DNA of 64,000 nt from a virus. Both the position numbers and the translations under genes were made by a program. How positions within the stretch are numbered: the stretch's first letter is position 1; each line of letters opens with the position of its first letter. Location: positions 1 through 64,000 of the IMG/VR virus record IMGVR_UViG_3300045988_089718; one strand, given 5' to 3'. A model generated the notes under the pieces. That model was not told where the DNA came from. It worked only from the letters and a program-made list of their open reading frames with translations, and did not search any database. Positions 8,986 through 13,028 of this stretch are shown piece after piece.

Positions 8986-9423
8986 ATGTGTTGGACAGAC
9001 GATGGTACAGCTATTAAAAAGATAGCTAAAAGAAATTTCTATGTTTACAAAATAGGAAATATTGTTCGGGATAATATTTTTGTTAGTGATATTAGAGGGT
9101 ATAGTTATATTCCTATATGTCCCAATAAAATAGTCCCTTTAATAGCTTATAGTCCTTGTATAGGTGTTTATAGAATAGACGGAGGATATCACTCTTATAA
9201 ATGGGTAGCTCTAGACGACACTTATCCAAATTTCAGATGTTTATGTCTTGGTAGTTATGATCCAGCTTTGAGGGAATCTTTAGAAGGATATAAGTTTTGT
9301 TGTATAGCTACGTTTATAGTTCCCAAAGGTGCTGAATACTTTGAAAATAAGTATGGACATATAGTATCTTCCGAAATTATTTATACAGGCAAATATTTAA
9401 GAATAAGTAATTTTAACAAATAA
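8986..9423 (+). CDS. MCW-family paralog 1 (145 aa)
   Basis: N-terminal MCWTDDG..IAKRNFYVYKIG; mid GGYHSYKW; C-terminal ATFIVPKGAEYFENKYGHIVSSEIIYTGKYLRI. Upstream junction TAAATAATTATGTGTTGG conserved among paralogs. Confidence 0.7.
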   Translation: MCWTDDGTAIKKIAKRNFYVYKIGNIVRDNIFVSDIRGYSYIPICPNKIVPLIAYSPCIGVYRIDGGYHSYKWVALDDTYPNFRCLCLGSYDPALRESLEGYKFCCIATFIVPKGAEYFENKYGHIVSSEIIYTGKYLRISNFNK

Positions 9424-9425
9424 TT

Positions 9426-9853
9426 ATGTGCTGGATAGGTAGATGTGATGTAAAAATAGCTAAACGAGATTTTTACGTTTACAAAATAGGTCGTGCATCT
9501 GATAAAGGTTTTAAGAGTTTATATCAAAACTTTATTTATGAACCAAAAGAAATAAATAAAAAAGTTGAACTAAACCCTATTCAATTCTTTCTAGATGAAT
9601 CCTCTTATGTAATTTATGGGGGTATCATTCTTATAAAGATATAGCTATGCCTTACTCTGATTTACGCCCATATTATAGAACAATTTATTTAGGTAAGATT
9701 GCAGAGGATATTAGATTATATAATATTTATTCTATTGCAACATTCATTGTACCTAAAGGTTCTGAATATTACGAGAATGGTGGAGGAGAAATAGTTTCTT
9801 CTAATATCATTTACACAGGTAAGTATGTAAAAATAGGTAATTCTGAAGAATAA
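9426..9853 (+). pseudogene. MCW-family paralog 2, split by a frameshift in a G5 run (9618-9622)
   Basis: ORFs 9426-9644 and 9647-9853 carry the N- and C-terminal family motifs in different frames. One extra G would give ...YGGYHSYKDIAMPYSDL... and restore one ORF. Confidence 0.6.
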
Positions 9854-9855
9854 TT

Positions 9856-10305
9856 ATGTGTTGGAACGGTCATAGTGGGCAGAAAAAAGTTGCTGAAAGA
9901 GATATTGAAGTTTACAAAATAGTTTGTAAGGCTGATAAAAAATCTTGTAAATCATGTGTTCAAGGTTTTATATATGAAGCTAATACTTTATATAAAATAC
10001 CTTCTATAGAGCTTAAGAAATCCTATATGTATAGAACATATAGTGTTCTTAGTATAATTTTCGTACAAAAAGCATATCACAGTTATACTAAAATACAACA
10101 AACCCTTAGTAGAATTTATTCAAAAGGCTCAATTTATGAGAATAGGGGAATTATTGCTGGCAATCAACTAATGTCAATAAGATTAGATAATCCCTATTAC
10201 GTAGCTACGTTTGTAATTCCTAAGGGTTCTCAGTATGCTGTAAATTGGAGAGGCGAAATTATCTCAAATCAAATAATATATACTGGAAAATGTTTAAAAC
10301 TGTAA
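9856..10305 (+). CDS. MCW-family paralog 3 (149 aa)
   Basis: MCWNGHSGQKKVAERDIEVYKIV ... AYHSYTK ... ATFVIPKGSQYAVNWRGEIISNQIIYTGKCLKL. Confidence 0.7.
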   Translation: MCWNGHSGQKKVAERDIEVYKIVCKADKKSCKSCVQGFIYEANTLYKIPSIELKKSYMYRTYSVLSIIFVQKAYHSYTKIQQTLSRIYSKGSIYENRGIIAGNQLMSIRLDNPYYVATFVIPKGSQYAVNWRGEIISNQIIYTGKCLKL

Positions 10306-10309
10306 AATT

Positions 10310-10747
10310 ATGTGTTGGACTTGTAATATTAGTAAATTAAAAACTCAAACAGCTAAAGAAGATATTAATGTATATAAAGTAGTTAAAAACGCCAATAGGA
10401 AATATTGTGTATCTCCATTTATGGAATATACTTACTATTCAAAAGATATACAACCTTCTTTAACTTTAGGGGTAACTATTGAACCTCGTTCAATTTTTGC
10501 AAAGATTACAGAAGGTTATCATAGTTACTCTTCTGTAAATTTTGTATGTGATTCAATAGTACCAGACATCTATGGAGGTTGTGTAAAAACTATACAGTGT
10601 GGAAGTCGTAAGGAAATATTTAGAGTAGACAATTCTTTATATTTAGCTACCTTTATAATTCCTTCAGGTTCTGTATATTTTACAAACGAAGAAGGTGTAA
10701 TAGTATCTAATAAAATTCGTTACACAGGTAAATATATAAAATTATGA
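10310..10747 (+). CDS. MCW-family paralog 4 (145 aa)
   Basis: MCWTCNISKLKTQTAKEDINVYKVV ... EGYHSYSS ... ATFIIPSGSVYFTNEEGVIVSNKIRYTGKYIKL. Confidence 0.7.
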   Translation: MCWTCNISKLKTQTAKEDINVYKVVKNANRKYCVSPFMEYTYYSKDIQPSLTLGVTIEPRSIFAKITEGYHSYSSVNFVCDSIVPDIYGGCVKTIQCGSRKEIFRVDNSLYLATFIIPSGSVYFTNEEGVIVSNKIRYTGKYIKL

Positions 10748-10965
10748 AAAAAATATTATTAATTATAGGATTACTATTAACTGTTACTTTAGTTAATAGT
10801 TATAATTATCCTGACACATGGTCAGGTAAGAGAAGCTGGGCTTATGAGAACAAAACATTAGAAATAATGTATGATTCTAAGAAAAGACCTCATAAAATAG
10901 TTATTTATTCTGAATTTAGAGAAGGAATGACAGCTATTGATTTGGATGCTAATACATATAAATAA
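10744..10965 (+). CDS. small secreted protein (73 aa)
   Basis: Signal-peptide-like MKKILLIIGLLLTVTLVNS. Confidence 0.45.
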   Translation: MKKILLIIGLLLTVTLVNSYNYPDTWSGKRSWAYENKTLEIMYDSKKRPHKIVIYSEFREGMTAIDLDANTYK

Positions 10966-10967
10966 TT

Positions 10968-11199: not shown

Positions 11200-11532
11200 A
11201 TGTGTTGGTTAAATAATATGGCAACTCCAATTGTATTGAAGAAGCCTTTAAGAGTTTATAAAGTAAGTTTCTTAGCGACTTCAGGTAGCTTTATAAGTTT
11301 ATACCGAAATTGTACATACTACAAATATAGGAATATGCCCACAGTAGAAATAAGCCCAGAGTTTGATAGGTATAATCCTAATGTAGGGTATTTTGGGGCA
11401 CTTTGGGAGTATGATCGTTTTTATATACATGAAGGTTACCATTCATATTTAACTGAAGAAACAGCTAAGTATGTAAGAAATATGTGGGACACACCTGGGG
11501 AAATAGGAATATTTGAAGTAATAAAACCTTAG
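11200..11532 (+). CDS. MCW-family paralog 5, short form lacking the C-terminal motif (110 aa)
   Basis: MCWLNNMATPIVLKKPLRVYKV ... EGYHSYL; ends before the ATFIVPKGS block. Confidence 0.55.
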   Translation: MCWLNNMATPIVLKKPLRVYKVSFLATSGSFISLYRNCTYYKYRNMPTVEISPEFDRYNPNVGYFGALWEYDRFYIHEGYHSYLTEETAKYVRNMWDTPGEIGIFEVIKP

Positions 11533-11591
11533 TCTTTTATATCTTTTCTCTAGGGTTAGTTATTTTTATAATAGCAAATGAAAAGATACTA

Positions 11592-11673
11592 CGGAGTATG
11601 GTGGAATTGGTAGACACGTATGCCCTAGGAGCATATGCAGTAATGCGTGTGGGTTCGAGTCCCACTATTCCGA
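11592..11673 (+). tRNA. tRNA-Leu (anticodon TAG), type II
   Basis: Leu-type D loop TGGTGGAATTGGTAGACAC; acceptor CGGAGTA/TATTCCG; anticodon stem TATGC/GCATA with loop CCTAGGA (C at position 33); long variable arm. Confidence 0.7.
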
Positions 11674-12152
11674 CGAAAATCGGGTTGGTTTGTATTCTAA
11701 GTATACATAGATGCATGGGTTGCACCCGACTGGTAAAAGAATATTAATTAACTAATGTTGTTTATTAGTTAGATTAAGAAGAATATATCAAACAAATGCA
11801 ACCAACTTGGGGGATACCTATATAGTCGCGAATATTATAGGGCAGATTGATAAGAAATGGAAACAATGAGCTAGGGTAATCTAGTAAACCTCTAGGAATT
11901 GTGAACGAAAGTTTCGAAGTACGTTTAATTCGTAAGTCCCCTACTGCGAAGTTTCAATCGTTATACCTAATTAGGGAAAAGAGAAGTTACCTATATAATT
12001 GCAAGTATGTAGGACAGGTGATAAGGCGAAAGATAACACAATATAATATTGCAGGTGAAGGCTTTCTAGCATTAGTTATCTAAGTAGTTGAAGTACGTTC
12101 GATTCGTATTACTTCTCCAAAGTCTTTGACAGACTGAAATGCCAGGTTTCAT
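11674..12152 (+). ncRNA. Candidate large structured non-coding RNA (about 480 nt) directly 3' of tRNA-Leu
   Basis: No credible ORF; the 60-aa ORF 11901-12083 has no upstream signal. GC and purine content higher than flanks. Internal repeat GAAGTACGTTyrATTCGTA at about 11913 and 12088. Ends at a strong terminator hairpin at 12153-12190. Confidence 0.4.
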
Positions 12153-12190
12153 AGGAGTATATTAACTAATTAGTTAGTATACTCCTTTTT
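12153..12190 (+). terminator. Rho-independent terminator
   Basis: AGGAGTATATTAACTAATTAGTTAGTATACTCC palindrome followed by TTTTT. Confidence 0.7.
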
Positions 12191-12217
12191 ATATTTAACA
12201 TATTAACAAAATTAATT

Positions 12218-12568
12218 ATGGACGAACAAGAAGTAGTTAAACAAATTAGGGAATTACAAGAGCAACGAACTCTATTAAAAAAGCAAGATACCGCTTTAGT
12301 ATGTAAAATCATGGAACTAAGAGATGAACTAAGGGAAGGTAATATCAAAAAAGGATGTTATTACACTGATACTTATGGTTTATTCTGCAAAGTCTATGAT
12401 ATTAAAGGTGGCAATATATATGTACATGAGTTAAATACTATAGATTCACCTTGCCTTACAAAGGAAACCTATTTTTGGAGAACTTTTGAAGAGACATATT
12501 ATAGAAAATGTACTAAAGAAGAGTATGATAAAGCTCTAGATAAAATAATTAATTATTTTAAAGGTTAA
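12218..12568 (+). CDS. hypothetical protein (116 aa)
   Basis: ORF. Confidence 0.5.
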   Translation: MDEQEVVKQIRELQEQRTLLKKQDTALVCKIMELRDELREGNIKKGCYYTDTYGLFCKVYDIKGGNIYVHELNTIDSPCLTKETYFWRTFEETYYRKCTKEEYDKALDKIINYFKG

Positions 12569-12572
12569 GCTT

Positions 12573-13028
12573 ATGTGTTTCAATAAAACAAAAGAAAGTA
12601 AACTCTTAATAGCAAAAAGAGATATTACAGTTTATAAAGTAGGCTGCTTTGCAGATGAAGTTAGGTTTTATTCTTATTTTATGACTACCTATATGTATAG
12701 TAGAAACACTCCTATACGTGAATATGTAGACTTTGATAGAGATTCTATTAATATAGGTTTACATAGTTTATTATCTTTACGAGGGGTATGTGACTCACAG
12801 ACAAAAGATATGCTCTTTTTTCCTAATGGAAATTTGTATCCTTTTATTATTACAAATGTTTTATGTAATCATGTTTATGTAGGAAAATTTATTATTCCAA
12901 AAGGTAGTATATATGTGGTTAATTGCTATAATGAAGTAGTATCTAATACACTTGTTTATACAGGTAAATTTAAATACATTAATAAAAATGAAAATTTTAA
13001 TGTTAAAGAATTATGGAAAGAAAATTAG
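12573..13028 (+). CDS. MCW-family paralog 6 (151 aa; starts MCFN)
   Basis: MCFNKTKESKLLIAKRDITVYKVG ... GKFIIPKGSIYVVNCYNEVVSNTLVYTGKFKYI. Confidence 0.65.
   Translation: MCFNKTKESKLLIAKRDITVYKVGCFADEVRFYSYFMTTYMYSRNTPIREYVDFDRDSINIGLHSLLSLRGVCDSQTKDMLFFPNGNLYPFIITNVLCNHVYVGKFIIPKGSIYVVNCYNEVVSNTLVYTGKFKYINKNENFNVKELWKEN

Follow-up and report, generated by a model that had tools for sequence, protein, structure and literature searches.

The stretch of viral DNA analysed here, 64,000 nucleotides long (positions 1 to 64,000 of IMG/VR record IMGVR_UViG_3300045988_089718; hereafter the window), carries seven loci of a family of small genes, which we call the MCW family after the Met-Cys-Trp start of most of its products. 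Six of the loci lie within 8986-13028 and the seventh at 33828-34244, all on the plus strand. A profile hidden Markov model (HMM) made from the five full-length copies and searched against the six reading frames recovered exactly these seven loci and nothing else in the window (E = 6.5e-61 to 2.2e-05). An earlier reading made from the letters alone (the sequence-only reading) had counted seven copies in the array plus one at 33828. The open reading frames (ORFs) and the six-frame HMM search gave six plus one; the extra copy was possibly the result of counting the two halves of a frameshifted gene separately.

Four copies in the array were intact. Copy 1 (8986-9423, 145 amino acids, HMM E = 3.3e-54), with orthologues up to 79% identical, copy 3 (9856-10305, 149 amino acids) and copy 4 (10310-10747, 145 amino acids), the one used for the structure model, started with MCW. 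Copy 6 (12573-13028, 151 amino acids), which is preceded by a 116-amino-acid gene at 12218-12568, started with MCF; the HMM matched copies 3 and 6 as well. Copy 7 (33828-34244, 138 amino acids) started with MCL and was the most divergent: it lacked the GEIVS..YTGK end and matched the protein family PHROG 13450 at E = 1.7e-09, the lowest value for any window copy. The remaining two copies were damaged. Copy 2 (9426-9853) was split over two frames (ORFs 9426-9644 and 9647-9853), with HMM matches in both, and copy 5 (11200-11532, 110 amino acids, starting with MCW, HMM E = 2.2e-05) was truncated and lacked the IPxG...VVS C-terminal block.

Pairwise identity among the window paralogues was 22-38%. 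They had in common the motifs D-I-x-V-Y-K, G-Y-H-S-Y, F-I-I-P-K-G-S-x-Y and G-E-I-V-S, separated by a highly divergent middle, and the ORF translations of all window copies began with MCW, MCF or MCL, much as the sequence-only reading had described. The conserved gene junction that it had also reported was real in part. The junction contains a stop codon, two bases and ATG-TGT-TGG, the last two triplets encoding Cys and Trp. The exact 18-mer, TAAATAATTATGTGTTGG, occurred only once; with up to three mismatches it gave 5 matches against 0.40 expected, four at family starts (8977, 9417, 9847 and 10301) and one before a non-family gene (10959). The small secreted or membrane genes said to be interspersed in the array were found as two non-family ORFs on the plus strand, one of 73 amino acids with a signal-peptide-like N-terminus (10744-10965), which also serves as a conserved flank marker of the island discussed below, and one of 71 amino acids that is hydrophobic and membrane-like (10968-11183). 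Neither had a Pfam match.

The damage to copies 2 and 5, a frameshift and a truncation according to the sequence-only reading, was confirmed by comparison with related loci. Copy 2 has lost one A near 9618-9619 relative to the related locus L024 (TATG-GGGG in the window, TATGAGGGG in L024), the two being otherwise identical over the 122 nucleotides aligned. The L024 counterpart is an intact protein of 142 amino acids with EGYHSY. In copy 2, GYHSY is encoded from 9620, in the downstream frame of ORF 9647-9853. Counterparts were intact also in L001 and L015, and the truncated allele was not on record in any other assembly. Because the near-identical L024 gene is intact and the broken allele is unrecorded elsewhere, copy 2 either became a pseudogene very recently or contains a sequencing error. 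Programmed frameshifting was ruled out, since the otherwise identical relative with one more base has an intact ORF and the other relatives are intact. In copy 5, a deletion of about 130 nucleotides removed the C-terminal motif; the missing segment encodes IPxGA..Y..N....VVS in L001, L003 and L009. The same 110-amino-acid allele was present in L058, an independent human-gut assembly, so this truncation is real.

The family is large. With copy 4 as the query, we found 274 clusters at 90% identity, many of them on 170-190 kb contigs from human gut metagenomes. A profile search of 1.84 billion representatives clustered at 50% identity gave 4,268 proteins at E <=1e-3 and 573 at E <=1e-10. Among 185,579 bacterial and archaeal species genomes (one genome per species), only two short contigs from metagenome-assembled genomes matched, and a scan of IMG/VR gave 48 loci, mostly on 95-190 kb contigs. 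By these searches the family is essentially confined to phages, and the contigs on which it was found were of lytic type. One member lies in IAS virus (Crassvirales, Steigviridae), where it is annotated as "hypothetical protein" amid tRNA genes and small ORFs and adjoins the replicative helicase. The replicative helicase of the window is 22-26% identical to Crassvirales helicases, and the window phage is therefore a distant, large crAss-like phage.

The sequence-only reading had not recognised the family, and neither did the libraries. PHROG 13450, of unknown function, was the sole library family to match, with 97 of 140 aligned members (best E = 2.2e-12). Pfam gave no recurrent family for single copies, distant representatives or the 140 aligned members; NCBIfam gave no match, and PADLOC none for the MCW copies. 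Sequence and profile searches of the PDB gave only chance local matches, to lactate dehydrogenase and, through a short GYHSYKE segment, to Legionella LnaB-like proteins. Membership in the LnaB-like S-HxxxE phosphoryl-AMPylases was rejected: the match covered only 27-46 residues (E = 0.04-0.16), and a Glu at His+4 was present in 0 of the 6 window copies with the His motif. In the literature on crAss-like phages with ADP-ribosyltransferases (ARTs) or NAMPT, and on an N-terminal cysteine with an ART fold, we found no description of the MCW family. The sequence-only reading had named a lack of conservation in related phages as grounds for refutation; the family was conserved across the relatives.

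The array behaves as a hypervariable island. In 17 related loci with both conserved flanks, the upstream flank gene (72 amino acids) was 87-100% identical to that of the window in 15 loci and 38% in two, and the downstream 73-amino-acid gene was 77-95% identical. Between these flanks there were 1 to 4 intact MCW copies, of which the first and the last were 30-88% identical to the window copies. The 73-amino-acid gene was 77-97% identical in 23 related loci, and the 71-amino-acid gene was present in 9. Nucleotide identity along the island jumped from 66% to 99.8% between segments. Copy 3 shared 90% identity with L024_5541 but only 42% with the copy at the same position in L001, and copy 6 was 91-94% identical to a copy in each of the reduced two-copy arrays of L009, L035, L037, L039 and L041 but only 41% to the L001 positional copy. 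Copy 7 was 45% identical to its positional homologue in L056; the adjacent NAMPT gene was 96% identical. Split MCW copies were frequent in the related loci, and there were orthologues that are chimeras of adjacent paralogues, such as P0084, with its N-terminus and middle 79% identical to copy 4 and its C-terminus 88% identical to copy 3. Cassette replacement, turnover and recombination appear to account for much of the diversification.

The ratio of nonsynonymous to synonymous substitution rates (dN/dS), computed pairwise against orthologues, was 0.34-0.62 overall and below 1 in every copy. By region, it was 0.11-0.56 in the C-terminal block (0.11-0.13 in copies 1 and 3) and 0.22-0.71 in the middle. 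These values indicate relaxed purifying selection in the compared sequences, and gene-wide positive selection was not supported. The view of the sequence-only reading that this is a rapidly diversifying multi-copy family holds for the hypervariable island, the change in copy number, the pseudogenes and the chimeras, but not in the sense of gene-wide positive selection.

Against this turnover, a small set of residues has hardly changed. Across 225 diverse members, conservation in the N-terminal block was 96% for Cys2, 91% for Asp18, 99% for Lys23 and 98% for Tyr42, and in the strand with the conserved His it was 98% for Gly69, 99% for His71, 96% for Ser72 and 92% for Tyr73. The C-terminal part had Pro118 (100%), Lys119 (90%), Tyr123 (96%) and Asn126 (95%), followed by Glu130 (82%), Val132 (96%) and Ser133 (98%). 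Exceptions were seen among close orthologues, which may start with MLV or MYW or have GYYSY in place of GYHSY. Because a dozen polar residues are near-invariant in an otherwise fast-diverging protein of 145 amino acids, the pattern points to an enzyme, or at least to a fixed ligand pocket. The MCW proteins are standalone and have no signal peptide or transmembrane segment. They also lack a lipobox signal peptide: the Cys comes at residue 2, polar residues follow it, and there is no hydrophobic N-terminal segment.

A first AlphaFold2 (AF2) prediction from 30 sequences was unreliable, with one model at a predicted local distance difference test score (pLDDT) of 80, the other four at about 55, and Foldseek matches that were generic immunoglobulin noise. 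We therefore built a model of copy 4 from 140 diverse sequences. It reached a pLDDT of 93.4 and a predicted template modelling score of 0.87, all five models being at about 93, and was all-beta with 14 strands. Its closest resemblance was to the ART/NADase-like fold, with 8% sequence identity to TNT-like NADases, and the pseudo-ARTs TASOR, RCD1 and PARP13 were among its structural matches. Foldseek, which the sequence-only reading had proposed as a check, gave nothing significant for the 140-sequence model against the PDB. We consider the resemblance to the ART/TNT-like NADase fold probable at the level of the predicted fold.

Some details of the model are consistent with this resemblance. His71 sits in a beta-strand, like the beta1 His of the H-Y-E and H-H-h clades of ARTs. 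Glu130 opens a strand 59 residues after His71, a spacing similar to that from beta1 to beta5 in minimal ARTs, which in Arr we take to run from H19 to D84. In TreTu the corresponding spacing is from R6 to W68 (PMC9825190). TreTu is also an example of the small ARTs with unorthodox triads that exist and are active; in small ARTs the orientation of NAD+ counts more than the exact residues (PMC9825190).

Several observations weigh against an ART assignment. None of the canonical triads (H-Y-[QED], R-[ST]-E and H-H-h) could be mapped, with Tyr123 only 7 residues before Glu130. Three window copies have V or H in place of Glu130 or lack it altogether, and GYYSY replaces GYHSY in some of the close orthologues. 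The model is all-beta, where most ARTs have helices, and Cys2, the most conserved residue, has no counterpart in known ARTs. Among the Pfam matches of the 140 members at E up to 10 there was no ART family, and PADLOC gave none. Alignment of the family profile with Arr-2 and diphtheria toxin by hhalign had a probability of <=0.2%. No Macro, NUDIX or NAD partner recurred among 141 neighbouring ORFs of 17 diverse loci searched with Pfam. Since the sequence-level tests failed and the triad was not mapped, the family could not be assigned to any described ART family. We would describe it as folded like, or working like, an ART according to the model, and not as a member of such a family.

The explanation that we tentatively prefer, with somewhat less than an even chance of being right, is that the MCW family is a new and atypical ART-fold family of early host-takeover or anti-defence enzymes, in which the variable middle segment sets the target. 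In this explanation, MCW genes would encode phage-specific, small, cytoplasmic, all-beta proteins of about 140-150 amino acids with a core like that of an ART or a TNT-like NADase. With NAD+ bound, the enzymes would attach ADP-ribose to macromolecules of the host (or of the phage), or process it in some other way, and would probably act in an early phase of infection, like Alt, ModA and ModB of T4. The common active site would be made of the N-terminal block (Cys2, Lys23 and Tyr42), the G-Y-H-S-Y strand and the F-I-I-P-K-G-S-x-Y...N..G-E-I-V-S block, and the target would be chosen by the hypervariable segment that separates the His strand from the FIIP strand. As copies are duplicated in tandem, replaced as cassettes and recombined with one another, each strain would come to have a different set of specificities. 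For these proteins, NAD+ use, catalysis, the role of Cys2, the targets and the timing of expression are all what we infer.

In support of the ART-fold enzyme are the confident AF2 model, the enzyme-like conservation and the precedent of active, unorthodox small ARTs. The standalone form, the lack of a signal peptide, the restriction to contigs of lytic-type phages and the location in tRNA-rich regions of small accessory genes beside replication genes also support it, and the hypervariable island behaves as expected of host-interaction genes. The sequence-only reading had suggested an arsenal for host interaction or anti-defence, or a module for superinfection or receptor functions. The phage-only hypervariable island agrees with the first suggestion. 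An ART/NADase-like fold, which that reading had not anticipated, would also suit host takeover or counter-defence if the model is right. As the proteins have no signal peptide or transmembrane segment, they are unlikely to have an envelope or receptor role or to act in superinfection exclusion.

The window phage also encodes functions related to NAD+ and ADP-ribose. A block of DUF5662, NAMPT, Macro and Prs genes (35457-38788, plus strand) lies 1.2 kb downstream of copy 7, with NAMPT at 35947-37500, a DarG-like macrodomain at 37497-37991 and a Prs/phosphoribosyltransferase-like gene at 37979-38788. The assignments were based on PHROG 448 (E = 4.4e-177), on the Pfam families NAPRTase, NAMPT_N, Macro and Pribosyltran, and on PADLOC DarG (E = 1.2e-16). 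The block looks like an NAD+ reconstitution module with an ADP-ribose remover, and might counter DarT-type or NAD+-depleting defences. The presence of NAMPT, a Prs-like protein and a macrodomain able to remove ADP-ribose in the same phage counts in favour of the ART-fold enzyme; as support for NAD+/ADP-ribose biology in this phage, the proximity of the block to copy 7 is circumstantial.

Catalysis is the part of the preferred explanation on which the first alternative differs. The MCW proteins may be non-catalytic binders on an ART-like scaffold, that is, sponges for NAD+-derived signals or ADP-ribose, or decoys or inhibitors of a host NADase or ART defence, with the middle segment tuning the partner. 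We regard this as unlikely, though it comes next after the ART-fold enzyme. The fold itself and the pseudo-ARTs among its structural matches would be expected of such binders, and the putative catalytic Glu is dispensable, since 82% of all members have it and three window copies do not. In their small size, multiple copies and hypervariability the proteins are like anti-defence proteins, and the phage invests in NAD+ reconstitution. However, more than 200 divergent members agree at >=95% in about a dozen polar residues, Cys2, Lys23, His71 and Ser133 among them, which is a pattern expected of catalysis more than of a binding surface that diversifies, and a strictly N-terminal Cys is hard to explain in a binder.

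The N-terminal Cys is central to a second alternative. Cys2 had the highest information content of any position in the profile. Among the best 150 representatives, 136 started with MC and 109 with MCW, and an N-terminal extension was never seen. A Cys at position 2 permits removal of the initiator Met. Since the position of the Cys is strictly N-terminal, a free N-terminus is suggested to matter. The MCW proteins may accordingly be N-terminal-nucleophile (Ntn) enzymes, in which the Cys, residue 1 after Met removal, provides a 1,2-aminothiol that acts as the nucleophile of a hydrolase or transferase, or as an aldehyde trap like that of SRAP/YedK. The substrate could be something other than NAD+, and the likeness to ARTs would be that of a scaffold only. 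Cys2, His71, Asn126 and Glu130 offer the same chemical groups as the SRAP active site, which we take to consist of Cys2, Asn75, Glu105 and His160. The family did not have the fold or profile of SRAP (PF02586), although it has the invariant Cys2, nor did it have the alpha-beta-beta-alpha sandwich with an N-terminal nucleophile of the Ntn hydrolases; membership in either was rejected. We rank this alternative third and hold it to be unlikely.

Three apparent fusions, P0302, P0303 and P0123, were considered as a functional clue and rejected, as they look like read-through or start-site artefacts. All keep the internal Met-Cys-Trp, which is in line with an N-terminal role of the Cys. In P0302, from a contig of 181,820 bp, a Gln takes the place of the expected stop codon and links two neighbouring MCW genes (..KLQTMCW..). 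Two relatives, L028 (12157-12229) and L046 (19-91), carry tRNAs with the anticodon UCA, which are of the UGA-reading suppressor type. The Gln join and these tRNAs hint at reassignment of a stop codon in some related phages.

The ART-fold enzyme and the N-terminal Cys could also be combined. The family might be a new enzyme class with an ART/NADase-like scaffold and an obligatory N-terminal Cys, the 1,2-aminothiol forming a covalent thiazolidine- or thioester-type adduct with a ring-opened ribose. This ribose could belong to ADP-ribose, to an immune signal derived from NAD+, or to a nucleic acid that is abasic or ADP-ribosylated. The arrays would then be an arsenal of crAss-like phages against NAD+/ADP-ribose immunity, alongside NAMPT, the Prs-like protein and the DarG-like macrodomain. 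This combination is speculative, and we think it quite improbable.

A nucleic-acid target is a further alternative, similarly improbable in our judgement. The proteins would be ART-fold enzymes, like Tpt1/KptA, DarT or Tre23, that act on tRNA, rRNA or the ends of RNA or DNA, in connection with the large tRNA set of the phage. The dispensable Glu130 matches the H-H-h clade, in which the residue of beta5 need not be acidic (PMC9825190). The MCW arrays lie within tRNA clusters in the window and in IAS virus, tRNA clusters accompany the family in 13 of the 23 loci checked, and a DarG-like macrodomain is encoded. Two phage tRNAs with short inserts at position 37/38 could be related to such an activity. 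However, the proteins have neither the R-H-R-R tetrad of Tpt1 nor its N-terminal RNA-binding domain. Because tRNA islands and accessory genes often share phage regions, the co-location is weak evidence, and six distant loci had no tRNA nearby.

Decaying or selfish duplicates with no current function, or secreted or structural proteins, are very improbable. In their favour are the damage to two of the seven window copies, the frequent split copies of relatives and a fairly high dN/dS (0.34-0.62). However, no copy reaches a dN/dS of 1, and for copies 1 and 3 the C-terminal block goes down to 0.11-0.13; the 4,268 clusters at 50% identity have strongly conserved residues, the AF2 fold is confident, and a signal peptide or transmembrane segment is lacking.

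The window as a whole has a G+C content of 29-30%, and all ORFs of >=120 amino acids not nested in a longer plus-strand ORF lie on the plus strand. Its RNA genes include at least 14 tRNA genes, a tmRNA (24026-24356, tag peptide ARVINMTPAYQAAA) and a group I intron (63744-63971) at the end of ORF 63067-63798. When introns were allowed in ARAGORN, tRNA-Ile(UAU) (4890-4971) and tRNA-Val(GAC) (7719-7825) had anticodon-loop inserts of 10 and 14 nucleotides, respectively, that of tRNA-Ile being at 37-38. Short inserts at the canonical intron position are, to our knowledge, unusual for phage or bacterial tRNAs. Another tRNA, at 4379-4459, was found by Rfam and missed by ARAGORN; by eye, its anticodon loop was enlarged by about 11 nucleotides.

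Terminator-like hairpins at 8417-8451 and 12153-12186 bracket a unit of two small genes, copies 1-4, the two interspersed genes, copy 5, a tRNA-Leu(UAG) gene (11592-11674, plus strand) and a conserved non-coding stretch of about 500 nucleotides (11680-12190, plus strand). Copy 6 belongs to the next unit. Matches to sigma-70-type promoters were not enriched (37 found, 46.9 expected), and these phages probably use promoters of another type. The non-coding stretch was 72-85% conserved in relatives and ends in the second hairpin, of 15 bp. It had no match in Rfam, and its minimum free energy folding had a z-score of only -1.98. The stretch may be a long 3′ trailer or a phage non-coding RNA that is as yet unclassified. 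Upstream of the array, a standalone protein with a LytTR DNA-binding domain (7192-7551, Pfam E = 9.2e-07) may be a phage transcription regulator, and it was found upstream of the array in 32 related loci with 39-97% identity. A protein of 127 amino acids (33445-33828) with a signal-peptide-like N-terminus precedes copy 7, its stop codon overlapping the start of that gene. It was 85% identical in L056 and had no Pfam match.

For the majority of early and accessory genes in crAss-like phages, which rank among the most abundant viruses in the human gut, no function has been assigned. The MCW family, with its thousands of phage-confined sequence clusters, occupies a region that is among the most variable in these genomes. 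If the proteins are truly ART-like, they would provide a concrete and testable handle on how crAss-like phages reprogramme or disarm their Bacteroidota hosts, and would add to the ART superfamily a possible new branch of very small proteins with an obligatory N-terminal Cys. Taken together, the MCW genes, the NAD+ salvage block and the DarG-like macrodomain suggest that conflicts over NAD+ and ADP-ribose matter in the biology of gut phages and their hosts.

Among known systems, T4 Alt, ModA and ModB may be the best functional analogy for tandem ART-like genes in a lytic phage. These are, as we understand them, NAD+-dependent phage ARTs with several paralogues (modA and modB being adjacent) that reprogramme host proteins early in infection. 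The T4 enzymes are larger and belong to the R-S-E clade, whereas the MCW proteins have about 145 amino acids, are predicted to be all-beta, and have an invariant N-terminal Cys and a conserved His instead of Arg. Their sequences are not similar to those of any ART family in Pfam or PADLOC. The T4 genome has three of these genes, while MCW genes number from 1 to about 7 per phage.

Other small ARTs and NADases differ in their setting. The TNT-like NADases (Tne2, Tse6/Tne1, TNT and AfNADase) serve as toxins for delivery into other cells and have immunity proteins as partners, whereas the MCW genes have no adjacent immunity-like partner, the phage also rebuilds NAD+, and sequence identity is, as noted, 8%. 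The minimal Rhs/T6SS ART toxins TreTu, Tre23 (Rhs1-CT) and TreX form the C-terminal domains of large polymorphic toxins, which are accompanied by immunity genes; these domains include helices and lack an N-terminal Cys. The RNA 2′-phosphotransferase Tpt1/KptA and the DUF952-type proteins BC2332 and CC0527, of the H-H-h clade, had no profile match to the family, which lacks the Arg-His-Arg-Arg tetrad and the RNA-binding lobe of Tpt1. The SRAP proteins YedK and HMCES share with the MCW proteins an invariant Cys after the initiator Met and conserved His, Asn and Glu, a likeness that may be read as an analogy of chemistry only.

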